DNA of 28,365 nucleotides, taken from positions 1 to 28,365 of the forward strand of contig JAFGOA010000010.1 of assembly GCA_016926735.1 (NCBI GenBank), written 5' to 3'. The position numbers were made by a program, and so were the translations under genes. This document shows positions 2,561 through 18,376 of the stretch, in pieces (the stretch's first letter is position 1; each line of letters begins with the position of its first letter). The notes beneath the pieces are model-generated. The model was not told where the DNA came from. It saw nothing but the letters and a program-made list of their open reading frames with translations, and made no database searches. Source of the DNA: Promethearchaeota archaeon. GTDB lineage: Archaea; Asgardarchaeota; Lokiarchaeia; Sigyniarchaeales; SOKP01.

Positions 2561-2858
2561 TTTTGTTTTTTCCTTCTGTAAAACTTTTTCTTCATGTATG
2601 TACAAGATTATTACCCTATATAATATGAAAATTCTTTGTTTTATGTTGGATAAGAACAATTAATTGTCCTTAATAATATAAAAAGTATATTGATATTTAA
2701 GGTTTGCCACACAGACCAGTGCCTGCGAAAAACCATTCATAAAATGTATGAAGAAGTGATCTTTATAGATCTCATTAAGCATATCTTTATTGGAGTAAGA
2801 CCTAATGCTATCAAATAATATTAATTGAGAATGATAAAATTTTTTTTCTGAAAATAGT

Positions 2859-2895
2859 TTTCATGATCTTTATTCATGATATCCTCATGTATTAA
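2859..2895 (+). repeat. Dispersed TCATGA-triplet element, copy B
   Basis: tttcatgatctttattcatgatatcctcatgtattaa; 2860-2877 is identical over 18 bp to 3670-3687. Confidence 0.75.
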
Positions 2896-3179
2896 GAATT
2901 TAGAGATAAATTTAGAAAAGATAAATCAAAATCTATCATGATAATTCAAGAAACCTCCCTCTACGATAGTAGAGAGTATTTTTTCTAAATAGATTATAAC
3001 TTTTGATTATTTTACTTTTTTTAAGGTAATTAAATCATGATATTAAAGACAATTAACAACTTGAATAAAAAAAACTCAGTATTGGGGAATGCTAGTTCAA
3101 AAAAGAAAAACCTTTATTAATAAGAAGGTTATATTTTTAATTAAATCCCTTAAAAGGAAAAAAAAAAAGTGTTGATTCC

Positions 3180-3404
3180 ATGGTCTGGACTGTGAGCCCC
3201 CCGAAAAAAATTACTGTAATTATCTCTATCATAATTGTTTTTATTGGAATTATTGTTTCAATAATAGGATATTTTTCATTGTTTCCTTCAGAAATAATTA
3301 TTTTTGATTTTGAAATTAACGATTTTTTAGTTTATGCTGGACTTTTTATAATTGGTTTTGGATGGTTTTTAATCTTTTTAGGGACAAGACTCAGAGGTAT
3401 ATAA
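3180..3404 (+). CDS. Small 2-TM membrane protein, paralog 1
   Basis: SPPKKITVIIS... start, two TM helices, GTRLRGI end. Confidence 0.8.
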   Translation: MVWTVSPPKKITVIISIIIVFIGIIVSIIGYFSLFPSEIIIFDFEINDFLVYAGLFIIGFGWFLIFLGTRLRGI

Positions 3405-3423
3405 TAATTAAGGAGATGAGAAA

Positions 3424-3642
3424 ATGGATTATAACCCTCCCACACAAAAAACTATAGAATTATCGCTACTTATATTAACTATAGGAATTTCCTTAGTAAT
3501 AACAGGTTATCAAGAATTAATTACTGAAGATATTGTTTTCTTAAATATTAATATTAATACATGGTGTTTTTTTGGTGGATTTTTACTCTCACTGCTAAGT
3601 TGGTTAATAATGTACATAGGAATTCGTGTAAAAGGCTTATAA
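3424..3642 (+). CDS. Small 2-TM membrane protein, paralog 2
   Basis: NPPTQKTIELS... start, two TM helices, GIRVKGL end; aggag SD; aligns end to end with 3180..3404. Confidence 0.8.
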   Translation: MDYNPPTQKTIELSLLILTIGISLVITGYQELITEDIVFLNININTWCFFGGFLLSLLSWLIMYIGIRVKGL

Positions 3643-3658
3643 ATAACTTTTTTTAAAT

Positions 3659-3690
3659 CCATGATGCGCTTCATGATCTTTATTCATATA
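3659..3690 (+). repeat. Dispersed TCATGA-triplet element, copy C
   Basis: ccatgatgcgcttcatgatctttattcatata; 18-bp identity to copy B. Confidence 0.7.
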
Positions 3691-3959
3691 ATAAAAAGTA
3701 GCGTTGGAAAAAAATAAAAATTAATAGGAAATGATCATGGAATTTATAGGTAAAAATAAATAATGTTATATTTGACGAATTCACTTAATCCTTAAGATAA
3801 AATTGAATATATTCATCAAACATAATAATTTGATATTTAAAATCAATATTTCCGTAATCCTATAAAAAATCCTCTCTTATATAATGAAGGATTTTAAAAT
3901 TTTATACATTATAAAATATACAATATAGGTTTAAATTAAAAAACAAAGATGAATAATTT

Positions 3960-4643
3960 ATGCAACAAGAATTTATTATTTCGAATATATTTCAGCTTAT
4001 TACGTTTATTATTCTTTTTATATTTACAATAATAATCTTTATTCGAGATCCAAAGTATCAAGGAAACCAATTTTTAGCAATTGCTTATTTTGGAATTTTA
4101 ATAAATGTATTGATGATAATTATAAGTAGGTTTGAATTTAGTGAGGAAATCATTAATATTGTGTTTAGAGTTAGCATCATGGGAATTATTCTAGGTATTC
4201 CCTGTCTTACACTTGGGATTTGGATCTTTTGCGAAAGTTGGAATGTAGTAAAAAAAACAATTTTTTTTAAAATATTTCCATTGATTATTGGAATGTTATG
4301 GATAGTAGTATGGATACCTGATTTTATTACAATACAATCACTTCAAACTCTCAATATTCAACGAAATCCAATATATATGTTATCTATCACAATTTGGATT
4401 TTTATAAATTTGATATATACATTGATACGTTTAAGAAGGGTGATTACATCTCCAAATTTGAAGGATAAAAAAATGAGTCAGAAATTAAAAAAATTATTAC
4501 TTACTATTTACCTTACTTTTGGGATACCAATTTCATCAATATTGGAAGGTATAACGGGATCGGTGATTTTTACAATATCTCAATCCATATTTTCACTAAT
4601 TATTACTTTAATCTTAGCATCATTTATTTTAAAACGCAAATAA
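3960..4643 (+). CDS. Stand-alone 7TM membrane protein (HisKA_7TM-like sensor domain, no kinase)
   Basis: About seven hydrophobic helices, RDPKY..NQF after TM1, no cytoplasmic output domain. Confidence 0.7.
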   Translation: MQQEFIISNIFQLITFIILFIFTIIIFIRDPKYQGNQFLAIAYFGILINVLMIIISRFEFSEEIINIVFRVSIMGIILGIPCLTLGIWIFCESWNVVKKTIFFKIFPLIIGMLWIVVWIPDFITIQSLQTLNIQRNPIYMLSITIWIFINLIYTLIRLRRVITSPNLKDKKMSQKLKKLLLTIYLTFGIPISSILEGITGSVIFTISQSIFSLIITLILASFILKRK

Positions 4644-4723
4644 TTGAAATATGATTTTTTTTATTATATCCTCAAATCTTCAGATCTTTTTTCCTTAATA
4701 TGATATAAAAAAAAAGAAAAGTA

Positions 4724-5761
4724 TTATTTTATACATTTGAATATGGTTAAAGGTGTTGAAAAATACATTTTTTTAAATCCAGATTCTGTAAGCCAATTTT
4801 TAAATTCTTGTTTATCAAAAAATCCATTTGCACCTTCAATAGTTCTTAGCATAATATGAAGATATTCATTTGCTGTTGGTTTCATTATTGTACTACCAAA
4901 CATGATTCCCCCTGGTTTTAAAACACGAGAGATCTCACTCAAAGCTTTCTTGGAATCTGTCCAATGGAGTACTTGTGATATAAATACAAAATCAAAATAA
5001 TCATCTTCAAAAGGGATATCTATTGCTGTTCCTACTTTAAATTTTGGAAAGAATTTTTTAAATTTTAATAATTCTTCTTTGGAATATGAAGAATTATTTG
5101 ATAAGGTTAGCAGAAATTCTTCCTTTGCAATTTTTAAAAAATCTTTATCTATATCCATTCCATATATTTCCATTATTTTATCTTCTGAAAAAAAGTCTTT
5201 CTCAAAATATATGTTCCAAATTTCTACGGTTTCTAATCCACTTCCACATCCTATATCGAGTAACCTTCCTGCTTTATCAAAAACATTTAAGAAAGCAAAA
5301 GAGGCTTTTCTTATTATAGAATATACTTTTAAATTTAATGCATCATCGAAATTAAATAAATTATAACCAGTTGTATATCTAAGATGTTCACCTTTTAATC
5401 TTGCAGGTATTGCAGCTGCAAATGATCTTATATAATCCATCATTGATTTATTTAATAACACGGGAAGTTTATCTTTAATAACTAATGGTTCCTTCAGAAA
5501 ATACGTTTTATCTTCATAATTAATAGTCTTATCTGATAGTAATGCAAATAAAACTTCTTTAAGATAATCTATATCTGTATAATTAAAATTTTTAGCGATT
5601 TCATCGATATTATGCTTACTTTTAAGAAAATCAAAAAATCCTTGATTATTTAGTTCCTCTACAACTATTCTTCTAAAGAATTGATTGACATCTTTAAGTC
5701 TTTTACCAAGAAAACCTAATTTTAATACTTCTTTCCACATAAATGCTTTATTTAACATCAT
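4724..5761 (-). CDS. Class I SAM-dependent methyltransferase with N-terminal wHTH-like region
   Basis: LLDIGCGSG motif I, GMDID, IPFEDDYFDFV, LHW, RVLKPGG. Confidence 0.9.
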   Translation of the reverse strand: MMLNKAFMWKEVLKLGFLGKRLKDVNQFFRRIVVEELNNQGFFDFLKSKHNIDEIAKNFNYTDIDYLKEVLFALLSDKTINYEDKTYFLKEPLVIKDKLPVLLNKSMMDYIRSFAAAIPARLKGEHLRYTTGYNLFNFDDALNLKVYSIIRKASFAFLNVFDKAGRLLDIGCGSGLETVEIWNIYFEKDFFSEDKIMEIYGMDIDKDFLKIAKEEFLLTLSNNSSYSKEELLKFKKFFPKFKVGTAIDIPFEDDYFDFVFISQVLHWTDSKKALSEISRVLKPGGIMFGSTIMKPTANEYLHIMLRTIEGANGFFDKQEFKNWLTESGFKKMYFSTPLTIFKCIK

Positions 5762-6152
5762 TATCTCCTTATTTTTTAAAAGATATTGTTGTTATAACTC
5801 ACTAAATATATTAATTTTAAAACTAGATGAATTGAGCTCTGATATAATTCAATATAGTGAATTGTTATAAATTATCTATATTATAGAATTAATAACAACA
5901 AGAACTCTTTTTTGTTCTATTTGTAAATTTTATCTTTTGATAATAAATTTTTAAAAGATTTGGTTAATAAATTTATTCATTCAAATATCATAATATTGTA
6001 GTTTTGGTTTTCTATTTATAAATTTATAAAAATAGAATAAAAAATGTGAACTGCACACGACTTAAAGGTTGTGCTTTCCTATGAGTATGTAATTATTTTT
6101 AGTACGGCTCGGTCTGTTTATCATAGAAAATAGTTTCAGTATGATTGAATTG

Positions 6153-6188
6153 TTTCAAGATCCTTATTCATTTATTTTCATGCAGTGA
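6153..6188 (+). repeat. Dispersed TCATGA-triplet element, copy D
   Basis: tttcaagatccttattcatttattttcatgcagtga; aligns to copy A with one gap, and the flanks (ttg... / ...aaag) are also similar. Confidence 0.65.
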
Positions 6189-6291
6189 AAAGAAATGATC
6201 TGTTTTATTGTATTTATATCGTTTTTTATATAAGCTGAAAAAATAATAACTACAATAATACTATTTCTTTCTTAAAAGATTTCTTAATTTC

Positions 6292-6411
6292 TTATGTTCT
6301 TCTATTTCTTCCTTTTCCAGTGCTTTTTATATCCTTACATCCCCCACGTCCGCGATTTGCTCTTACTCCTCTGCCAGATCCATCTCGTTTAGGGACTCCT
6401 TTCTTTGCCAT
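6292..6411 (-). CDS. 39-aa Arg/Gly/Lys-rich small protein (absent from ORF track)
   Basis: ATG at 6411, TAA at 6294-6292: MAKKGVPKRDGSGRGVRANRGRGGCKDIKSTGKGRNRRT. The ORF exactly spans a local GC-rich island, with A/T-biased third codon positions. Confidence 0.8.
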   Translation of the reverse strand: MAKKGVPKRDGSGRGVRANRGRGGCKDIKSTGKGRNRRT

Positions 6412-6493
6412 ATAATCATATCTTTTTTTTTTTGTATTTATAATAATCAACATTATTTATTATTTTTTTTTTTTCATTCTTTCATATCTTAAT

Positions 6494-6529
6494 TACAAAG
6501 ATCTACATTCTATTATCTTCATGGAGTAA
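6494..6529 (+). repeat. Dispersed TCATGA-triplet element, degenerate copy F
   Basis: ...gatctacattctattatcttcatggagtaa retains gatc and the tatcttcatg.ag tail seen in copy E. Confidence 0.45.
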
Positions 6530-6764
6530 AGAAAAAGAAGATAACTATAATTTTATGATTATTTTGTATCTAAAACTATACCTTCCTTCTCCTTAAAGAA
6601 AGAAGTCTTCTTGAGTGATTATGGCTAATTTTTCAATATTCAATTTATTCAACTATAGTTTTATATACAAGATAAAATAATTATAATCTGTAAATTAATA
6701 CTTCAATCATTAAATATAGAAATCTTTTTAAAATAGAACATATATTTAGTAAAACGATGATTTA

Positions 6765-8102
6765 ATGATGAAAAATCTAATTGGACATCTCTTAATAGGT
6801 AAAAAAAAGAGTAAATTTCTATTAAAAATTGTAATTGGTGCTTCTATTCTTTTTCTTATATGTTTTTTCTATCAGACTAAACATATTCTCGCTGCTGGTG
6901 GTGAATTAAATGTTCAAACTAATAAAAGCAATATTAATATTGGAGATAACGTAACAATAACGTGGATTGAATACAACGAACCGTATACCACACCATATGG
7001 ATCAGGATATTATGGAGGTTTTTTTTATTTAGTCTCGTTAAGAATAGATGATGGAAATTGGACTTTGTTAAACAATCAAACTAATAGGGGCTATAATTAT
7101 CAAATCAATACATCTGGAATAGCAAGATTTAGGGTAGAAGAATATGCAACTTGGACGACCTATGATGGTCCTAGTGGAATAACTACTGATTATGGCATAG
7201 CACTAATATATCAAGAAAATAGCATAAATATTGAAGTCATCAATCCATATACAACTACGTTATCAGAGATACAACTATTCCTAATTATCAATATAATTTC
7301 GAGTATTTTTATTACAGGAGCAATTGTATATTCACTGCATTTAAAAGAAAATATGAAGAACAAAGGTGAAATTAAAAAAAAGATCTTAATTGATATTACT
7401 AATATCTCTCTTTCATCATTATTTACTTCACTGCAAATTATCCAAATTAATGAAAATCAGAATATTGGCATTAATACCATAGATAATAATCCTCTCCTTT
7501 ATATATTTTCGTACTTAATGCTTTTTATTGCAATTCTTATTTTAATATTACTATCAATAAGTTTTGTTATTTCTTTACAAGAATACAGAAAATATTTAAA
7601 GAATAAAATAAATGAACCGATATATAATAGAAAATTAAATTTTAAGAAAGTATTTGAAAATGAAACAAGACAGAATTTAATTAAAACAATTTTACAAGAA
7701 CCTGGAATTCATTTTCAAGAATTATTGAGAAAGTGTCAATTACAGAGAGGTCAATTACAATGGCACCTTAAAATTTTAGATGAATTTGGTATAATAAAGA
7801 AGAAAAAAATAGGACAATATAGTTCCTTTTTCTCTCGTTTTAACAATGTTGAATCAAAAAAATATAATAAAATAATTACAAAATCAAACATACGAGTTGA
7901 ACTCTTAGATATAATTAGAAAAAATCCAGGAATTACACCTACAATAATAAAAAACATTAAAAAAATCAATCTAACAACAATAGATTATCATATTAATAAA
8001 CTAAAGAAAAATAACTTTATAAGAACTGAGAAAAAAGGAAGAGAAGTATTTCTTTTTATAGATGAGGATATTTCTATTAATTTAGAAGACTATATGACAT
8101 AA
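6765..8102 (+). CDS. Membrane-anchored transcriptional regulator: signal peptide, beta-rich ectodomain, ~3 TM, tandem wHTH (COG3398-like)
   Basis: Basic/hydrophobic N-terminus ending HILA-A; Tyr/Gly/Thr-rich domain; TM helices; FENETRQNLIKTILQEPGIHFQEL...GQLQWHLKIL and IRKNPGIT...TIDYHINKL. Confidence 0.85.
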   Translation: MMKNLIGHLLIGKKKSKFLLKIVIGASILFLICFFYQTKHILAAGGELNVQTNKSNINIGDNVTITWIEYNEPYTTPYGSGYYGGFFYLVSLRIDDGNWTLLNNQTNRGYNYQINTSGIARFRVEEYATWTTYDGPSGITTDYGIALIYQENSINIEVINPYTTTLSEIQLFLIINIISSIFITGAIVYSLHLKENMKNKGEIKKKILIDITNISLSSLFTSLQIIQINENQNIGINTIDNNPLLYIFSYLMLFIAILILILLSISFVISLQEYRKYLKNKINEPIYNRKLNFKKVFENETRQNLIKTILQEPGIHFQELLRKCQLQRGQLQWHLKILDEFGIIKKKKIGQYSSFFSRFNNVESKKYNKIITKSNIRVELLDIIRKNPGITPTIIKNIKKINLTTIDYHINKLKKNNFIRTEKKGREVFLFIDEDISINLEDYMT

Positions 8103-8204
8103 CTTATGCTATATTCTAAAATTAAAAATATATTTTTTATTTATTTTTATAGGATGTTCTATCTAAATCAATAAAAAGATCTGAAAAAAAGATCCAAATC
8201 ATTT

Positions 8205-8303
8205 ATACTTCAAAAAGTGTACCTCAAATCTTAAAAAGAAGCTAAAAAATTAAGTATTTTCTATATAATACTTCAAAAAGTGTACCTTAAATCTTAAAAA
8301 GAA
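8205..8303 (+). promoter_or_regulatory. 36-bp direct repeat x2 (35/36 identical, period 63 bp), putative operator
   Basis: atacttcaaaaagtgtacctcaaatcttaaaaagaa (8205-8240) and atacttcaaaaagtgtaccttaaatcttaaaaagaa (8268-8303), ending 66 bp before the hydrolase ATG. The repeat is seen directly; the operator role is inferred. Confidence 0.7.
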
Positions 8304-8369
8304 ATCTAACATATTTAAAATAATTCTCTAAAAAGAGAAATGAATTAAATAAAGAGGATTAGAGAAATA

Positions 8370-9950
8370 ATGCAAATTAAAAAAAAAAAAGGGAATTATT
8401 TTGTAAAATTAATTGTTGTTATTTTATTTTTTAATACAATCTTTCTTTTTAATTTTACACAACATACCTTGGCGACTACTCCTAATTTAAATGTACAAAC
8501 TAATCTTGATAAAAAGGACGTTGTATCTTGGAATGTAATTGAATTACATCCTGAATCAGGATCTTTTAGTGGATATTATTCTGAAATATATTCAAAAGCT
8601 AATGGTGAAGTAAATTGGACTTTATTAGATACTTATCAGGGATTGGGTTTAAAAAATCATATCCTTGAAGATGATAGAGAGATTTATGGAGAATTCAAAA
8701 TTATTGAAAAGGCAAGTGCCTATTATAACGATGGAATTCAATATAATGGAGAATTTATTCTCATCGATGATATAGAGAAGAATATAGAAAAAATGTTTAT
8801 TGGTTTTACAAGTGAAATAGTCTTTTTTTCTTGGAATGTAATTGAAATGCATCCTCAGGTAGGATCTTTTAGTGGATATTACTCAGAAATATACTCAAGA
8901 ATTTTAGGTGAAGAAGACTGGACTTTACTCCAAACAGACCAAGAATTAGGAGAGAAAGAGTATTCTCAATCATTAGACATCTCCGATACAATTATAGAGT
9001 TCAAAATTGTTGAGAAAGCAGAAGTGTATACTATGAATGGAAATACATACTATGGACCTCATATACTCTATGAGAAAATTTTAAAGATACTTACAGATAG
9101 TGATACAACTTTATTATTAGTTCATGGATTTTGGGGATCATCATCTACTTTTAATGATCTCTTAAGTGATACTAAATATGATAATAATGGAAATGGAATT
9201 AATGATTTCAAAGATCATTATGGAATAAATAACATCCTTAAGGTTGATTATTATTCTTCTCATGATCCAGATCCAGAATTTAGTGGATTTACAATAAATA
9301 CTCCTATTGAAGATGTTTCAAGGGCTTTAAAGAACTATATCATTAATAATAAAATTAATGGAAAGATAAAAGACCATTTGGATATAATTGCTCATTCCAT
9401 GGGAGGACTTGTTGTTAGATATATGATAGAACACGAACACTATTATGAGGAAATTAAAAATGCAGGAGTAACTATAGATAATATCGCGACTGTAGGCACA
9501 CCCAATCATGGAACACTCCTTAGCCAAATAGCATTAATAGGAGGTGTATTATCTCCAATTTTACCTATTGTCTTATCCGTTTATGGAGTTGGAACTCTTG
9601 GCATTCAAATATTTCAAATGGCTTATATCCATGCATTTATTTTGGATTTAAATTCTGGTGATGAGACACCACATAGTAGAGATGATAGTGGAGAGTATTC
9701 AGATATACATTGGTCTACCTATAGAGGTCATGTCAGGGATGTATGGTGGGAACCATTATTATGTCCAATAATATGGTTGGTTTATCCACTTTACAATCCT
9801 GCAATCTATAAGAGTGATAGTGTTGTTGATACTGGTTCTGTAAGTCTAGGAGATGGTGCTACCAATCATTATTATAATGGTTTTGACCATGATGAAATAA
9901 AATCAAAAACTTCTGCACTAAACGATATCTTTAATGAATTACAAAAGTAG
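8370..9950 (+). CDS. Secreted alpha/beta hydrolase (lipase/PGAP1-like) with duplicated N-terminal ~100-aa domain
   Basis: Signal peptide; LLVHGFWG oxyanion motif; AHSMGG nucleophile elbow; GTPNHGT; SDSVV (Asp); FDH (His); N-terminal repeat with a 303-bp period. Confidence 0.9.
   Translation: MQIKKKKGNYFVKLIVVILFFNTIFLFNFTQHTLATTPNLNVQTNLDKKDVVSWNVIELHPESGSFSGYYSEIYSKANGEVNWTLLDTYQGLGLKNHILEDDREIYGEFKIIEKASAYYNDGIQYNGEFILIDDIEKNIEKMFIGFTSEIVFFSWNVIEMHPQVGSFSGYYSEIYSRILGEEDWTLLQTDQELGEKEYSQSLDISDTIIEFKIVEKAEVYTMNGNTYYGPHILYEKILKILTDSDTTLLLVHGFWGSSSTFNDLLSDTKYDNNGNGINDFKDHYGINNILKVDYYSSHDPDPEFSGFTINTPIEDVSRALKNYIINNKINGKIKDHLDIIAHSMGGLVVRYMIEHEHYYEEIKNAGVTIDNIATVGTPNHGTLLSQIALIGGVLSPILPIVLSVYGVGTLGIQIFQMAYIHAFILDLNSGDETPHSRDDSGEYSDIHWSTYRGHVRDVWWEPLLCPIIWLVYPLYNPAIYKSDSVVDTGSVSLGDGATNHYYNGFDHDEIKSKTSALNDIFNELQK
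8526..9070 (+). repeat. Intragenic tandem domain duplication (period 303 bp / 101 aa)
   Basis: SWNVIELHPESGSFSGYYSEIYS..WTLL..EFKIIEKA vs SWNVIEMHPQVGSFSGYYSEIYS..WTLL..EFKIVEKA; DNA similarity starts at 8526 and 8829. Confidence 0.9.
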
Positions 9951-10095: not shown

Positions 10096-11193
10096 TCATT
10101 TATTTTGTTTGAAATATCCTATAATACGATTTTTATTTTGAAATTTATTTGCATCATATATAAGCCCCTTAAGACCAGTTCCGTCATGATACATTTTTTT
10201 ATCAAATTTAAGTTTCAATTTCCCCGATTTTCCGGGTGTTATATCTTCTCCTTCTATAATTTTAAAGGGTGAGGATTTCAAGTCTGTTATTGCTGTATAT
10301 TGTATTACTTCTTGCGACGTTATTTTATCTTCTTTAGGTTTATAGAATTGATTTATATATACTTCTGCCAAAATTTCAGTTTCTGATTTAAAAATACCTT
10401 GGGTGACTAATAAGTTGTCTCTATTTATATCTTTCGAGTCAATATTTCCTTTTAAAGCCAGACCAACTCTATCTCCTTTATGAGCTTCTTTAAAATCTCT
10501 ATCATGTTTTTGAATACTTCTGATAATCAATTTTTTCTCTGGATTTTCAGAGCCTATAAGACCTACCATTTGACCTGCCTGAAGATTTCCTTGTTTTACC
10601 AAACCTAAGATTACCGTTCCTATCCCTTTTACAGGAAAACAGTGATCAATCAAGATTTTAGTATAATCAGAGCTTAATCCTTTTTTTTCATTAAGGATAA
10701 TATCAAAGGTTATAACTTTTTTCTTAAGTTTTTCAAAATCTTCTTTAGTTTCGATTAAAAACATCTCTGTGTTTTTAATATGAGTTGTTTCAAGAATTTT
10801 TTTCAGTTTTGCTTTGGTTTCTTCTAGTTTCCAATTATTTTTATCATTGATATTTGTAATTACAATTAGAGGATGTGTTTTATAGAGTTGATGAAATATA
10901 TCAAGACCTATAAGTAATTCACCTATAACAGCATTTAGTCCAATGTCTAAATCGACGACAAGAATATGGATCTCTGTTAGAATCAATGATTGTAAAAATG
11001 GTTTTATCTTTTCTGGATAATTTATTGGAGACATAGCACAAAATACTTGGCCCAATTTGGTGTCTAATCGATTATAGAATTGAATATCTGATTTTGTACC
11101 TGGAGCGCCAAAGGCTTGTCCAATCAGATTATTCTGATCGTTATTTTCTCCAAATATTCCTATAACAAAAGTATTCTCAAACATTTCATTCAT
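10096..11193 (-). CDS. Archaeal SelB-like (aSelBL) EF-Tu/EF1A-related protein with degenerate G domain
   Basis: GTKSDIQFYN, YPEKIKPFLQ, IDHCFPVKGIGTVILG, IRSIQKHD...GDRVGLALKG (EF-Tu domain II); no GKT P-loop. Confidence 0.85.
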   Translation of the reverse strand: MNEMFENTFVIGIFGENNDQNNLIGQAFGAPGTKSDIQFYNRLDTKLGQVFCAMSPINYPEKIKPFLQSLILTEIHILVVDLDIGLNAVIGELLIGLDIFHQLYKTHPLIVITNINDKNNWKLEETKAKLKKILETTHIKNTEMFLIETKEDFEKLKKKVITFDIILNEKKGLSSDYTKILIDHCFPVKGIGTVILGLVKQGNLQAGQMVGLIGSENPEKKLIIRSIQKHDRDFKEAHKGDRVGLALKGNIDSKDINRDNLLVTQGIFKSETEILAEVYINQFYKPKEDKITSQEVIQYTAITDLKSSPFKIIEGEDITPGKSGKLKLKFDKKMYHDGTGLKGLIYDANKFQNKNRIIGYFKQNK

Positions 11194-12798: not shown

Positions 12799-14352
12799 TT
12801 ACGAAGTATTTTCGATTGTATTAAACATTAGATTTAGCTTTTCAAAAATCTCTATTTGATAATTAATACCAAACTTGAAAAAATATAGTGTGATTTTCTT
12901 ATTATCTGCTTGATTATTGATAAAACTAAAGTTTTCTATGTAACTGGACCAATCGACATTTTCATTAATTTGGATTCCTATTAATAAAATGTTATTTTCT
13001 TTAAGTTGATCTAATACTTTTAAAATAGTATTTTTCCAATTTAAAGGAGTGATTATATTATCTTTCCCCTTAAAAATACAAAATACTGCATCAGAATTAG
13101 AAATTTCAATCTTACTAAAATTAAAATTTTTTACAGTAAGACTATTTAGATATTCATATATTTGAGATCCTTCTTCAATTTTTGTATTATGAAGTGTGAA
13201 TTTGGTAAGGATTTTTTTTAATGATTCCATTCCAGGATTATATTCTAAATCTTCTACTATAAAGGAAATAGTTAATTTTTTCTTAATTGATAAAATTGTC
13301 TCAATAGATTTAGTCATTTGTTGTATCTTTGAAATTTCTTTTAATTCTTTATTTTTAATTATATAATGGTAGGAGAGAAGTTTGAAAGCATCCGCGATAT
13401 TTTCACCTGTTAAAGCACTTGTTTCTATGTATGATATAATTGAAATACCTTTTTCAGAAATATTTTTTGTAATATCAACTCCTTTTTGATATTCAATTTC
13501 TTTCTCTTCTGATAAATCAGATTTATTTCCTAAAATAACAATAGGTATTGATTCTACGCTCAAAAATTGATCTAGTTCATTAAACCAATTAATTATGTTA
13601 TCATATGATTCTTTTTTTGTCAGATCAAATACAATAAATGCTGCTTGAGTATTTTGATAATATAATTTTCGAATTCTTTTAAAATGTTCTTGAGATCCAA
13701 TATCCCAAATAATTAATTCTACTTTATTTCTTAAAAATTCAATATTATAAGAAGTAATATTCAATCCTATTGTTGCACGATATGCATCAGTAAATTTATT
13801 TTCAGTGAAACGTCTAATTATCGATGTCTTTCCTACACCGGGATCTCCAACTATAATAAATTTATATCTGTAATTTTCATTTTCATTTAAAGTAATAGAA
13901 TGAGATTCATTTGCAGATTCTGTTTTATTTTTTATATCAATACTAAATTTAGGGATTGATAATTCAATGACATTATCATCTTTTGAGGAGAATATTTGAG
14001 CTACTTTTTCAGCCAAGAAATATAAATACGCATTAATAATATCAGATGATGAATTCAGATTTACTACTAAAAAAATTACAATATCTTCAATTGCTAATAA
14101 GTAATATAATTGATAATCTTGCGTAATAAAATATTTTATTCCTAATTCATTGAATTCATTTCTAATTCGATCTATAATAGGATTTATAAGAGATGAATAA
14201 TAGATATTATTTTTAGTATTATCTTCTTCTCTATTCTTAGTAAACAGAATAGAACCATCTAATTTGGAAATAATTATCGCCTGAGTTTCAGGACTTACAA
14301 TAAAAAAGTTATCGAACAATAGTTTAAATAATAAATTTTGATTAGTAAACAA
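12799..14352 (-). CDS. Roadblock/longin-like + Rab-like small GTPase + degenerate GTPase-like domain, paralog 1
   Basis: AIIISKLDGSIL (roadblock-like); GDPGVGKTS, YRATIG, WDIGSQ, NKSD, ETSAL. TTG start with a gggga SD. Confidence 0.9.
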   Translation of the reverse strand: MFTNQNLLFKLLFDNFFIVSPETQAIIISKLDGSILFTKNREEDNTKNNIYYSSLINPIIDRIRNEFNELGIKYFITQDYQLYYLLAIEDIVIFLVVNLNSSSDIINAYLYFLAEKVAQIFSSKDDNVIELSIPKFSIDIKNKTESANESHSITLNENENYRYKFIIVGDPGVGKTSIIRRFTENKFTDAYRATIGLNITSYNIEFLRNKVELIIWDIGSQEHFKRIRKLYYQNTQAAFIVFDLTKKESYDNIINWFNELDQFLSVESIPIVILGNKSDLSEEKEIEYQKGVDITKNISEKGISIISYIETSALTGENIADAFKLLSYHYIIKNKELKEISKIQQMTKSIETILSIKKKLTISFIVEDLEYNPGMESLKKILTKFTLHNTKIEEGSQIYEYLNSLTVKNFNFSKIEISNSDAVFCIFKGKDNIITPLNWKNTILKVLDQLKENNILLIGIQINENVDWSSYIENFSFINNQADNKKITLYFFKFGINYQIEIFEKLNLMFNTIENTS

Positions 14353-14555: not shown

Positions 14556-15176
14556 CTACCTATTCTTACGTAAATCTGCTCCGCAAAATGAGCAAAAATC
14601 TGCTCCTTTTGAAATAATCTTAGAACCGCATTGAGGACAAAATCGAGCGAAATTCACATCTTTAGGTAATTTATTTTTAATATTTCGAAACATATCTTTA
14701 AGTACTTCTTTAATTTTTAGACTTTTTTCTTCAAATAATTCATCAGGGAATGATTTTATATAAGCGATTGAAAATTCAACTAAAAAATTCTCAATAAATT
14801 TTAACTGTTCTCCAAAATGGTCGCTAACTTTTGATTTTATGATTTGTTCTCCAGCATCAGTTAAAGAATAAACACTTTTTAAAGGGCCAATCGGACTTTT
14901 AACTTTTCTTGATATCAAATATCCATTATTTTCCAGTTTGTTTAAAATAGGATAGATTGTACCAGATTTAGCTTCCCATGTTTTTGCGAATTGTGTATTT
15001 AGAATTTCAATTAAATCATAACCAGATATTGTTTTCACATTAAAGATAGCTTCTAATACAGTAACTTCTAAAGGAGTCAATTTTTTTTTCTTGATTTTTT
15101 TAAATATATTATTTGTTGCTTTTTTACTTAATTTTTCAATATCTTCTTCAACATCAAGAAATTTATTCAACCACAT
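14556..15176 (-). CDS. PadR-family regulator with C-terminal zinc ribbon
   Basis: SGYDLI...W..KSGTIYPILNKLE..G...YSLTDAG; CPQCG...FCSFCG. Confidence 0.9.
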   Translation of the reverse strand: MWLNKFLDVEEDIEKLSKKATNNIFKKIKKKKLTPLEVTVLEAIFNVKTISGYDLIEILNTQFAKTWEAKSGTIYPILNKLENNGYLISRKVKSPIGPLKSVYSLTDAGEQIIKSKVSDHFGEQLKFIENFLVEFSIAYIKSFPDELFEEKSLKIKEVLKDMFRNIKNKLPKDVNFARFCPQCGSKIISKGADFCSFCGADLRKNR

Positions 15177-15189
15177 TTATTAATCACCC

Positions 15190-15732
15190 TTAATTTGTAT
15201 ATTCTCCAAACTTTTTCTTCATTTTATCCATTTCTCTTTCTACTGCTCTTTCTCTTCTTGTTTTAACTATTCCATCTTGGGTTATTTTTCCACTACAAAT
15301 AATTCTTGTGCCTATAAGATGTAAAAGCATTGGAATTCCCCATGATACACCAGGGTAATAAGCCCAATCAAAATGAGGAATTTGAAGAAGATTCCCTCCC
15401 ATAATATCAGCATCAGTAGCTAACAATAAAAGCATTGTTGTGACATATGCTGTAAGATGAATATAGGATAACCGTTTCATCATTGGATAAACGCCATTTG
15501 CATAACAATAATATGCTACAGCATGTATACTTAGACCAATTAGCCAACCAAATAAGGGATAAAGAACCCATCCATATGATGGACTTGAAAGATAATTTAA
15601 AATACCTAAAAATATAATTATCAATATATATGTAATTGCATGAAATCTCAATAATAACCTGTACTTTACTTTTTGAGCAGCTATCTTTCTTAAACTCTCC
15701 TCTGAGAATCCAGGATTTTCTTCTATACTCAT
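15190..15732 (-). CDS. Membrane protein with two 2TM-domain-like units
   Basis: FHAITY...W.LYPLFGWLIGL.IH and IHLTAY...WAYYP..SWGI..LLH; C-terminal ERAVEREM. Start 15732 was chosen for the ggtg SD upstream; the ORF-track start at 15810 lies within the promoter. Confidence 0.8.
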   Translation of the reverse strand: MSIEENPGFSEESLRKIAAQKVKYRLLLRFHAITYILIIIFLGILNYLSSPSYGWVLYPLFGWLIGLSIHAVAYYCYANGVYPMMKRLSYIHLTAYVTTMLLLLATDADIMGGNLLQIPHFDWAYYPGVSWGIPMLLHLIGTRIICSGKITQDGIVKTRRERAVEREMDKMKKKFGEYTN

Positions 15733-15821
15733 TAATAACACCATTTTAATATAATATTGTTTGTTGATTTTAAAGAATGATTTTAGATTTATTAAATTTA
15801 TATAGACCAATATTTATAAAA

Positions 15822-16819: not shown

Positions 16820-18376
16820 TTATAACAAACGTTTGAGTGTCTCAAACATAATTTGTAAATGATCAAATATTTCAATTCTATATTTCTCACCTATTTTAAC
16901 AAGAAGTAATGAAATATTTTTGTTCTCTAATTGTTCATTAATATTAAATCCATTAATAAGACTAGTCCAGTCTGTATATTCATTAACACGAATTCCAACC
17001 AATATAATTTGTTTTGGAGTATTTGAATCTATAATTTTCTTTATTATATCTTTCCATTTAACATTTGTATGAGTTTTATTTCTTCCATCAAAAAGACAAA
17101 TAATAGCGTCAGAATAATCGATTTTATCAAAATTAAAATCATAACTTTTGATAATAAGACCATTTTTATATTCATATTTTTTTATATTACCAATATCGGT
17201 TGATTTCTCTAATGAATATTTAGAAGCTATATTTGAGAGAATTTGTAAGCCCGGATTCCAATATTGATTTTCTGAAATAAAAGAGACAATTAAATCTTCT
17301 TTATTTTCTAAAATCAAATCTATCTCAGCTTTAATGTTATGTTTGAGTTTTTCTTCCTCAAACTCTTTGTTTTTCATTATATAATGATAAGAAATTAATC
17401 GAAAAGCTTCATTGACATTTTCTCCTGTTAATGCACTAGTTTCGATATAAGATATATTGGAGATTCCTTGTCGATATAAAGAATTAGTAATATCTACACC
17501 TTGTTTATACTCTATTTGTCTTTGGTTTTTTAAATCTGATTTATTTCCAACAATTATTATTGAAATATCATTAATATCAATAAAATTTTTTACTTCATCA
17601 AACCATATTTGAATATTATTATATGATTCCTTATTTGTTAAATCGAAAACAATTAAAACCGCTTGAGCAGCTTGGTAATATGTTTCTCGAAAACGTTTAA
17701 AATATTTTTGAGCACCAATATCCCAAATTAATAATTCAATGCTATTATTAATAAATTTGATTGTATGAGAAATTAGATTTAATCCTATTGTTGCTCTATA
17801 ATCATCGGAAAATTTGTTTTCAGTAAACCTTCTTACAATAGATGTCTTTCCAACCTTTTCATCACCAACAAGAATAAATTTATATCTATATGTCTTCCCA
17901 TCATCTAAGTGTGTTTGATAGATTTGATTTTTAAGATAAGATTTTTTTTTTGTTTCATATTCAAATTTAGGAATAATTAATTGAATTTCATCATCGTTAT
18001 TAGCGTCAAGAATTTGAGCTGTTTTTTCTGCTAAAAAATAAGCATAAGAAGTAACTCTATCAATAGATGCTTCTGGATTAATAACATATATCATAAATAT
18101 AGTTTGATTTACAGAAACAAATAAAATTCTATGATCCTCAGTATTTAGACTAGCAGTTCCAAATTCTTGAATTGCAAATTCTTTTCTTATTCTTTCAATA
18201 ACAGGATGAATTAATGATGTAAGATCTGAAATAGTCTCCATATCAATTTCTTCTTTTTTGACTTCTTGTAAAATGTTACCATCTGCATTTGATAAAATAA
18301 CTGCCTCAACATCATTATTAATTTCAAACAAATTTGAACATAATTGCCTAAAATATAGATTTTGATATTCTTCCAT
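16820..18376 (-). CDS. Roadblock/longin-like + Rab-like small GTPase + degenerate GTPase-like domain, paralog 2
   Basis: VEAVILSNADGNIL; GDEKVGKTS, YRATIG, WDIGAQ, NKSD, ETSAL; colinear with 12799..14352. Confidence 0.9.
   Translation of the reverse strand: MEEYQNLYFRQLCSNLFEINNDVEAVILSNADGNILQEVKKEEIDMETISDLTSLIHPVIERIRKEFAIQEFGTASLNTEDHRILFVSVNQTIFMIYVINPEASIDRVTSYAYFLAEKTAQILDANNDDEIQLIIPKFEYETKKKSYLKNQIYQTHLDDGKTYRYKFILVGDEKVGKTSIVRRFTENKFSDDYRATIGLNLISHTIKFINNSIELLIWDIGAQKYFKRFRETYYQAAQAVLIVFDLTNKESYNNIQIWFDEVKNFIDINDISIIIVGNKSDLKNQRQIEYKQGVDITNSLYRQGISNISYIETSALTGENVNEAFRLISYHYIMKNKEFEEEKLKHNIKAEIDLILENKEDLIVSFISENQYWNPGLQILSNIASKYSLEKSTDIGNIKKYEYKNGLIIKSYDFNFDKIDYSDAIICLFDGRNKTHTNVKWKDIIKKIIDSNTPKQIILVGIRVNEYTDWTSLINGFNINEQLENKNISLLLVKIGEKYRIEIFDHLQIMFETLKRLL

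Follow-up and report, generated by a model that had tools for sequence, protein, structure and literature searches.

A transmembrane one-component regulator of a Promethearchaeota archaeon carries an FN3-like ectodomain of the same family as the modules of the exported hydrolase encoded next to it

Introduction

When a transcription regulator spans the membrane and the next gene encodes an exported enzyme, what could it mean that the outer part of the regulator and the front of the enzyme are built from the same kind of domain? This question is raised by a locus of a Promethearchaeota archaeon (GTDB lineage Archaea; Asgardarchaeota; Lokiarchaeia; Sigyniarchaeales; SOKP01). We analyzed a stretch of 28,365 nucleotides, referred to here as the window, which covers positions 1 to 28,365 of contig JAFGOA010000010.1 (assembly GCA_016926735.1) and has a G+C content of 24%. 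In it, the gene of a transmembrane regulator, P0001, is followed on the same strand by that of a lipase-like hydrolase, P0002; homologs of both proteins are annotated as Lokiarchaeota or Promethearchaeota. A first-pass annotation had proposed that the regulator's ectodomain is a paralog of the hydrolase's N-terminal domain and that the two form a signaling circuit.

Three possible scenarios may explain such a match. First, sensor and enzyme could recognize the same external target. Alternatively, the paralogous domains could contact each other directly, or the match could be a non-functional by-product of evolution. We rank them in this order.

A one-component regulator and an exported hydrolase

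P0001 combines an FN3-like ectodomain with membrane helices and a DNA-binding part, which makes it a transmembrane one-component regulator (Table 1). The DNA-binding part consists of two consecutive winged helix-turn-helix (wHTH) domains. The first matches HTH_HVO_0163_N (PF24266) in Pfam at residues 299-358 with 54.5 bits (cut-off, 31; E=1.2e-14); HTH_24 is matched above its cut-off over two stretches (31.7 bits), and residues 376-424 give matches to HTH_20, HTH_34, and MarR that are all below their respective cut-offs. The AlphaFold2 (AF2) model has two helix-helix-helix-hairpin units in this part of the protein. We take "COG3398-like" to be the label for archaeal double-wHTH proteins.

Hydropathy yields the hydrophobic segments of P0001 given in Table 1, namely, the N-terminal core, TM1, TM3, and a weaker segment between the latter two. 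The full-length AF2 model contains helices at residues 168-195, 200-234, and 243-283, followed by the two wHTH domains, with a predicted local distance difference test score (pLDDT) of 59.8 overall and 70-88 at the three membrane helices. The ectodomain part of this model was discarded since its alignment lacked homologs of the domain, and a separate domain model was used. Lys and Arg residues number six after TM1 (191-208), eight after TM3 (271-300), and none in the loop at 229-245. Because Lys/Arg-rich segments follow TM1 and TM3 and three helices are modeled, the wHTH domains are predicted to be cytoplasmic and the ectodomain to lie outside, the middle helix (207-228) being weakly hydrophobic. 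Relatives in other genera have one clear transmembrane segment between ectodomain and wHTH domains, and the same orientation results. Hydropathy, AF2, and Pfam agree with the earlier description of one domain copy, about three transmembrane helices, and a tandem wHTH, and the proposed one-component design with an outside sensor and cytoplasmic wHTH domains is consistent with the positive-inside rule. Since one polypeptide holds a DNA-binding domain together with transmembrane regions, P0001 is a transmembrane transcription regulator (TTR).

P0002 starts 267 nt downstream of P0001 and has its own promoter-like region. Three Pfam families match it above their cut-offs (DUF7379 [PF24096], 44 bits versus 33; PGAP1, 31 versus 24.3; DUF676, 28.9 versus 20.3), and a weak match links it to PDB entry 7v3k, a "putative lipase" (E=5.7e-4). 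In an alignment of seven homologs, some of them partial, the HG motif, AHSMGG (Ser343), GTPNHG, and Asp483 are invariant, and His507 (GFDHDE) is in the consensus but not invariant. The internal repeats at 8512-8647 and 8815-8950 are 75% identical in nucleotide sequence, with z=32.8 for the encoded protein. P0002 would thus be an exported lipase-like hydrolase with its catalytic domain behind two FN3-like modules, which is how the first-pass annotation had described it.

Table 1. Coordinates of the regulator gene, the hydrolase gene, and the elements between them
Feature	Position in window	Strand	Basis
Transmembrane transcription regulator gene, P0001, 445 aa	6765..8102	+	ORF; Pfam wHTH matches; paralogs and orthologs
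P0001 N-terminal signal peptide or anchor, residues 1-44 (K-rich n-region, hydrophobic core 14-42)	6765..6896	+	Hydropathy; resembles the family-wide signal peptide of the secreted proteins
P0001 FN3-like beta-sandwich ectodomain, residues 46-165	6900..7259	+	HMM, AF2, VIA-align, ortholog P0008
P0001 membrane module, residues 166-283 (TM1 164-193, K-rich loop, weak helix 207-228, TM3 241-275)	7260..7613	+	Hydropathy, charge counts, AF2
P0001 wHTH 1, residues 296-360	7650..7844	+	PF24266 HTH_HVO_0163_N; AF2 secondary structure; alignment
P0001 wHTH 2, residues 372-436	7878..8072	+	Sub-cut-off HTH_20/HTH_34/MarR; HTH_24; AF2; alignment
Box 1 of 36-bp direct repeat, candidate regulator binding site	8205..8240	+	32/36 identical to C102 locus, flanks about 50%
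Box 2 of 36-bp direct repeat, ends 66 nt before hydrolase ATG	8268..8303	+	34/36 identical to C102 locus
Putative A/T-rich TATA-like element, window-specific	8312..8323	+	Sequence reading; comparison with related upstream regions
Perfect palindrome, 6-bp arms, between promoter and start codon	8324..8339	+	Sequence; related genes
Secreted lipase-like alpha/beta-hydrolase gene, P0002, 526 aa	8370..9950	+	ORF; Pfam
P0002 FN3-like repeat 1, residues 36-140	8475..8789	+	Domain HMM, 84.3 bits
P0002 FN3-like repeat 2, residues 141-242	8790..9095	+	Domain HMM, 86.5 bits
P0002 alpha/beta-hydrolase domain, residues 243-526; Ser343 codon 9396-9398	9096..9947	+	Pfam; invariant motifs

The shared FN3-like domain

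The signal-peptide type and the ordered motifs that had first suggested a relationship were all found in both translations: a K-rich signal peptide is followed by LNVQTN, (T/S)W, SGYY, and NWTLL and then by FRVEEYA in the regulator and FKIIEKA in the hydrolase. Whole-protein BLASTP aligns the two proteins with E=4e-6 over regulator residues 9-109, a region that includes the signal peptide. With signal peptides removed, Smith-Waterman alignment of the ectodomain gives z=7.3 against hydrolase repeat 2 (a score reached by 0 of 1000 shuffles) and z=4.1 against repeat 1 (2 of 1000); the latter drops to 2.7 (18 of 1000) once the LNVQTN stretch is taken out as well. A hidden Markov model (HMM) of the domain was built iteratively from 13 copies in seven secreted proteins, the regulator never being included. 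It matches regulator residues 80-135 with 25.4 bits, corresponding to E=5.6e-10 for the single sequence and 2.2e-6 over the 3934 open reading frames (ORFs) of the genome. Such a profile alignment with hydrolase-type repeats had been named in advance as a test of the relationship, and it is significant.

The separate AF2 model of the ectodomain, computed from a 14-row alignment, is all-beta with a pLDDT of 91.4. VIA-align places FN3 domains at the top, including titin FN3 2nzi_B (Z=9.7; root-mean-square deviation, 2.6 over 89 residues) and many further FN3 domains near Z=9. The top rows of Foldseek are likewise FN3 and PKD domains (E about 1e-3, TM-score about 0.5), none of which reaches E<=0.001 against the PDB; the fold assignment rests on VIA-align. 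The model thus predicts a seven-stranded FN3/Ig-like beta-sandwich. Neither fn3 nor PKD of Pfam matches P0001 or P0002 at E<=1. A profile search of 1.84 billion protein representatives found the domain in 144 of them at E<=1e-3 and in 35 at E<=1e-10. This FN3-like domain is a small lineage-restricted family of its own.

What had been claimed as paralogy of ectodomain and hydrolase domain thus stands as homology, but not as a specific copying of the neighbor's repeats. The ectodomain is 22% identical to each hydrolase repeat and 25-28% identical to the copies in L018, L020, and L022. A recent copy from the neighbor can be ruled out, given that this identity is not above that to other family members, and nucleotide similarity between ectodomain and neighbor gene is confined to one 22-nt stretch. 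The similarity of the signal peptides is a trait of the whole secreted-protein family rather than of this pair: secreted proteins with the same signal peptide and one to four domain copies occur in the same-genus genomes G001-G003.

Several members of this family carry the module in front of other domains. In L021 (4074-6011, minus strand), it precedes a peptidase C13-like domain (Pfam E=1.6e-8); in L019 (1732-3255, plus strand), a His/Cys caspase-like motif read by eye; and in L096 (6363-9887, plus strand), a Laminin_G_3-like domain and an HExxH motif. In this genus, exported enzymes and surface proteins whose C-terminal parts are unrelated appear commonly to have the FN3-like module at their front.

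Among regulators, the domain is found in one further protein, P0008 (293 aa, cut by a contig end), which is 47% identical to P0001 over 290 residues. Identity reaches 54% in the ectodomain (65 of 120 residues) and 43% in the membrane module (54 of 125). The ectodomain is therefore the best-conserved part between P0001 and the sole ortholog found, which points to selection on it. Searches for further FN3-type regulators with the P0001/P0008 alignment gave 196 pattern matches in metagenome contigs and 164 in genome contigs, none of which was confirmed, and the top matches to the C-terminal module of the regulator among 60 relatives all carry other ectodomain types.

Recurrence of matched pairs

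To judge what the shared domain means, we examined how ectodomains and neighbors combine across the regulator family. The membrane and double-wHTH module was detected at E<=1e-20 in 52 of 61 related genomes; the six genomes of families f3 and f5-f7 gave no such match. It occurs in open frames of about 250, 420-580, and 750-850 aa. The genome studied here encodes nine regulators with an ectodomain, five of which have a repeat-propeller ectodomain of about 450 aa. Within this genome, each ectodomain was compared with its neighbors by BLASTP. That of the window regulator matches its neighbor with E=1e-7. The regulator of contig C102 matches with E=5e-9 over a 25-residue motif, only 55 ectodomain residues being visible before the contig end. 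Two tandem regulators in C41 (E=7e-78 and 4e-78) and one in C222 (E=6e-70) match the next gene. The ectodomains of the C91 and C158 regulators have no match in a neighbor, and those of two 421-aa regulator forms have no non-regulator homolog in this genome. Five of nine regulators, at four loci and with three domain types, thus match an adjacent exported protein; C41 and C222 are paralogous loci and were counted as one event. The domains concerned are rare among the 3934 ORFs: 4 others contain the FN3-like domain, 9 non-regulator ones the propeller, and 5 the C102 motif. Because each domain is rare in this genome, chance adjacency is improbable.

In C144 of the same genome (G000; 2841-5382, minus strand), a gene for a 613-aa propeller protein is directly followed by one for a 212-aa double-wHTH protein; a regulator of this family may have been split or frameshifted here.

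For other genomes, we scored a non-random sample of 40 loci, favoring frames of at least about 395 aa and omitting small forms, together with three additional loci. Of the 44 regulators found there, one without an ectodomain was dropped, and a match was defined as a same-locus non-regulator ORF at E<1e-4. By this measure, 10 of the 43 remaining regulators have an ectodomain match in their locus, and 33 do not. Three types can be told apart among the ten matched pairs. In six of them, the partner has 350-400 aa and is encoded directly upstream; in three, it has 650-670 aa and is encoded downstream (in one case 5.6 kb away); the last is a singleton. In partners from other genera, a signal peptide leads into the shared ectodomain, and a membrane anchor with a basic tail forms the C terminus. 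Pfam assigns them to no family; a single match to NCU-G1, in a partner of the six-member type, is below threshold (19.5 bits; cut-off, 27). Apart from the regulator, the domain occurs solely in the partner in three of three genomes for one pair type and in four of five for another, the fifth having one extra copy. The tree computed for the second pair type joins regulators of different species to one another and does the same for partners (100/99 on three branches); its deeper branches are unresolved, and one long-branch row is unreliable. Because the tree groups sequences by role across species, the matched pairs appear to be stably inherited rather than repeatedly re-formed. Overall, matched pairs span at least five ectodomain types that BLASTP does not connect, and ectodomain matching between regulator and neighbor is a recurrent, sometimes exclusive arrangement in this order. 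The expectation that such pairs would recur in Asgard genomes was thus confirmed for regulators and surface proteins in general but not for the FN3-like ectodomain, for which only the truncated P0008 was found.

In three partners, encoded in L078 (7446-8573), L079 (11429-12511), and L081 (11707-12897), the C terminus combines a Pro-Gly-aromatic motif with a hydrophobic helix and a basic tail; it presumably resembles archaeosortase-type sorting signals.

These observations bear on two alternatives to a shared external target. In one, the match is an evolutionary by-product of domain shuffling and tandem duplication in a fast-expanding family of exported proteins; the ectodomain would be a spacer or envelope anchor with no role in choosing a signal, and the regulator may respond to the state of the membrane or envelope or be constitutive. 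Ectodomains (FN3-like, lectin-like motif, propeller, and others) are indeed exchanged freely within the regulator family, which keeps one conserved membrane and wHTH module, the FN3 module is a generic N-terminal part in front of hydrolase, peptidase C13, and Laminin_G_3 domains, and most of the sampled regulators (33 of 43) lack a matching neighbor. A by-product would not be expected, however, to arise in so many ectodomain types that BLASTP leaves unconnected, to persist across genera with both genes intact, or to leave the ectodomain as the best-conserved part of the two known FN3-type regulators (54% versus 43%). Chance adjacency is also unlikely where each domain has four to nine other ORFs among about 3900. 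We consider this scenario unlikely, though far from negligible.

In the other alternative, the exported enzyme, or elsewhere a membrane-anchored paralog, would dock through its FN3-like modules on the ectodomain and act as a ligand or co-receptor. Such a homotypic circuit would measure its own product on the surface, giving feedback or autoinduction comparable to ToxR/ToxS or VtrA/VtrC. Paralogs that descend from a self-associating ancestor often keep binding each other. The partners in other genera, which combine a signal peptide, the same ectodomain, and a membrane anchor without an enzyme domain, would suit this role, as would the frequent finding that the partner is the sole paralog in its genome and the stable co-inheritance of the pairs. 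Bacterial transmembrane regulators with co-encoded membrane partners are also known, as described in the available text of Kinch et al. 2022 (PMC9214523). Against direct contact stand the mere 22% identity between the window ectodomain and the enzyme repeats and the sister-genome regulators of the same subfamily, which adjoin FN3-bearing proteins without having an FN3 ectodomain themselves. Complex prediction with hydrolase repeats and regulator ectodomain scored 0.00 in both runs, which has no bearing either way. On balance, direct contact seems rather unlikely.

The intergenic DNA

The near-perfect 36-bp direct repeat that the first-pass annotation had noticed between the two genes was recovered: its two boxes share 35 of their 36 positions, and 100 shuffles produced no match. 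The 18-nt core of the box occurs exactly four times in the 3.9-Mb genome, twice in the window and twice in contig C102. There, the boxes are flanked by the gene of the closest paralogous regulator, whose C-terminal module is 51% identical, and by a secreted-protein gene downstream of it. The intergenic layout is that of the window, with two boxes at 63-bp spacing and 67 nt to the ATG versus 66 in the window. Between the two loci, the boxes are identical at 32 and 34 of 36 positions, and identity is 37/73 upstream of them, 13/27 in the spacer, and 33/66 downstream. Because it is conserved in this paralogous locus, the 36-bp repeat looks like a real regulatory site, and it is probably a cis-regulatory element.

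Further copies are found in related loci. G001 has one box with two core mismatches; it precedes by 65 nt the ATG of a gene for an FN3-bearing secreted protein of 750 aa, and this gene lies directly downstream of the regulator that best matches the C-terminal module of the window regulator. Weaker variants (21/27, 21/27, and 18/27) occur 67-80 nt before the ATG in three more loci. When the upstream regions are aligned at the ATG, the order is box core, TATA-like element, short palindrome, and start codon. The box is thus predicted to lie just upstream of the core promoter and to run into it, a position that suits an activator site. The window and C102 regulators have almost the same recognition-helix segments; those of P0005 and P0006 have diverged, and the boxes of the latter two diverge as well. 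This co-variation of regulator and box is weak (n=4) and no more than suggestive.

Palindromes equivalent to that of the window occur about 30-45 nt before the ATG in L097 (C102), L056, L018, L021, L022, and L019; their arms differ and stay complementary, and they could form an RNA or DNA hairpin or serve as a second operator. In C91 of this genome (G000), two adjacent FN3-bearing secreted-protein genes have near-identical upstream regions of about 90 nt (upstream of 27319 and 30371), in which the palindrome encloses the TATA-like element. Upstream of 9161 (minus strand) in L017, which holds the G001 ortholog of the window hydrolase, an element similar to that of C91 replaces the 36-bp box. 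Judging by these sequences, there is a second promoter type within the FN3-bearing family. A search of Rfam with 8050-8450 returned only one miRNA family, with 23.9 bits versus a gathering score of 62.6, which we take as chance.

The repeat might also be a duplicated promoter or the site of another factor, in which case the regulator would act elsewhere and the palindrome at 8324-8339 would be the real operator or a hairpin in the 5' untranslated region. Accordant with this, the box core of related genes directly precedes a TATA-like ATTATAAATAA; the palindrome, which most genes of the family possess, keeps its position in seven genes with compensatory arms (CTCT/AGAG, CCCT/AGGG, GCCTTT/AAAGGC); and where no regulator adjoins a family member, the TATA element and the palindrome are kept and the box core is absent. 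Yet ACTTCAAAAAGTGTACC, which forms the upstream half of the box, is no general promoter element: exact copies are confined to the two loci whose regulators are most alike, and it degrades in step with regulator divergence. We regard a duplicated promoter or a foreign site as improbable.

Other features of the window

The stretch upstream of the regulator gene, between it and a methyltransferase gene, is an unusually long gene-free region of about 1 kb (5762-6764). It contains a 22-nt inverted repeat (6559-6580 and 6654-6675; 91% complementary) and, at 6292-6411 on the minus strand, a 39-aa Gly/Arg/Lys-rich ORF with no Pfam match at E<=0.1. A remnant of a replaced ectodomain, of the propeller or another type, in this region was rejected, since tblastn with nine related proteins gave a best E value of 0.017.

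Downstream of the hydrolase gene, 10096-11193 (minus strand) encodes a 365-aa protein with matches to EF-Tu domains 2 and 4 only (E=1.2e-7 and 3e-4) and none to the GTPase domain. Two paralogs of about 517 aa, at 12799-14352 and 16820-18376 (both minus strand), have a Ras/Roc-family GTPase at residues ~164-328 (Pfam Ras, E=2e-43 and 2e-44), flanked by a 160-aa N-terminal and a ~190-aa C-terminal extension without a family match. The minus-strand genes at 14556-15176 and 15190-15810 encode a PadR-type regulator with a C-terminal zinc ribbon directly downstream of a protein with two 2TM domains (PF13239); they may be another membrane-linked regulator pair.

Discussion

Our preferred reading, which we hold tentatively, is that the regulator binds the twin boxes at the hydrolase promoter and switches the gene according to what its ectodomain meets, with sensor and enzyme sharing an extracellular target. 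From the membrane, the regulator would bind the two 36-bp boxes that lie directly upstream of the hydrolase promoter and overlap it. The common target could be a surface, a polymer, or a component of the cell's own envelope, and the enzyme would be made when that target is present. The logic would be that of the RsgI polysaccharide sensors of cellulolytic clostridia, whose CBM3, PA14, and GH10 modules have known polysaccharide ligands. Because sensor and enzyme use the same kind of module, a shared target is the most economical explanation of the match. Binding to the boxes, the direction of regulation, and the ligand are parts of this scenario that we infer.

Several results weigh against this reading. 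The ectodomain is no nearer to the repeats of its neighbor than to copies elsewhere and so has no specific tie to P0002, and FN3-like modules are common spacers without a fixed ligand. Outside the genome studied here, none of nine propeller-type regulators sampled in G001-G003 has a same-locus match at E<1e-4, and the same-subfamily regulators of G001 and G002 have a propeller ectodomain, unlike their FN3-bearing neighbor. The closest ortholog of the hydrolase, P0011, lacks an adjacent regulator and has the other promoter type. As for the DNA, no box-like sequence was found upstream of the regulator gene (best, 16/27), and the 3' half of each box aligns with the TATA-like element of related promoters; instead of an operator, the repeat could thus be a promoter that was duplicated and is read by general factors.

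A bolder version, which we think unlikely, makes the pair one instance of a kinase-free design of Loki-type Asgard archaea. A conserved chassis of membrane and double-wHTH modules would repeatedly take its ectodomain from an adjacent exported or surface-anchored protein, and sensor and product would recognize one another or a common target; in the window, the two-module enzyme would serve as the ligand, cluster its receptors, and thereby drive its own promoter via the twin boxes. If true, paralogous adhesion-type (FN3-like) domains would here form a receptor-ligand circuit in the prokaryotes most closely related to eukaryotes.

How does the locus compare with known systems? TTRs occur widely among bacteria and archaea according to the main text of a census (Demey et al. 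2023, PMC10269533). As described there, TTRs such as ToxR, TcpP, and CadC resemble P0001 in combining an outside sensor, membrane helices, and a cytoplasmic DNA-binding domain in one polypeptide, and P0001, like them, would act from the membrane on a nearby promoter. Its DNA-binding part, in contrast, is C-terminal and made of two HVO_0163-type wHTH domains, whereas ToxR and CadC have an N-terminal OmpR-type wHTH; also unlike ToxR-type TTRs, P0001 has an FN3-like sensor shared with the neighbor that it putatively regulates. The words "Asgard" and "Lokiarch" are absent from the main text of the census, whose supplementary tables, outside that check, may list such proteins. In the literature searched, those supplements not being covered, neither this regulator family of Asgard archaea nor matched-ectodomain pairing was described.

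In VtrA/VtrC and ToxR/ToxS, the gene of a transmembrane regulator adjoins that of an exported or membrane protein, as here; the second protein takes part in sensing, and the cassettes evolve fast, according to the available text of Kinch et al. 2022 (PMC9214523). VtrC, as that text describes it, is a lipocalin-like barrel unrelated to the periplasmic domain of VtrA and encoded by an overlapping gene, whereas the partner at our locus is a paralog of the sensor domain. The window partner is moreover an enzyme with its own promoter-like region rather than a lipocalin-like protein, and it is an analog of such co-components at most.

A closer likeness in logic is RsgI of Clostridium thermocellum, a membrane sensor whose outside module is of the same kind as those of the exported enzymes that it controls, as stated in the available portions of PMC10328401, PMC6852018, and PMC6582324. 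RsgI is, however, a bacterial anti-sigma factor that works through proteolysis and release of SigI and does not bind DNA, whereas P0001 is predicted to be DNA binding. Pfam finds no anti-sigma or sigma domain in the regulator or its neighbors, and the likeness to RsgI/SigI is one of logic only. Archaea are not known to have sigma factors.

The archaeal regulators ArnR and ArnR1 have an N-terminal HTH and C-terminal membrane helices and lack a large ectodomain. To our knowledge, they have no paralogous partner. Like P0001, these proteins of Sulfolobus acidocaldarius are membrane-tethered one-component regulators that act on a nearby promoter, in their case that of the archaellum, as far as the available text of PMC6396743 describes them. 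P0001 thus belongs to the known class of TTRs, and what the locus would add is a paralog-matched sensor together with a conserved candidate operator.

TTRs are a recognized class that is almost unstudied in archaea, and the locus yields a concrete prediction of regulator and operator in a group that is very hard to grow. It presents a testable surface-to-gene signaling module. Its possible design rule, that the sensor domain matches the neighboring surface or secreted protein, holds for five of nine regulators here and for 10 of the 43 that were sampled from other genomes. A functional match would show how surface proteins and exoenzymes of these archaea are coupled to gene control without a kinase, and the neighboring gene would then let the signal of many orphan regulators be guessed.

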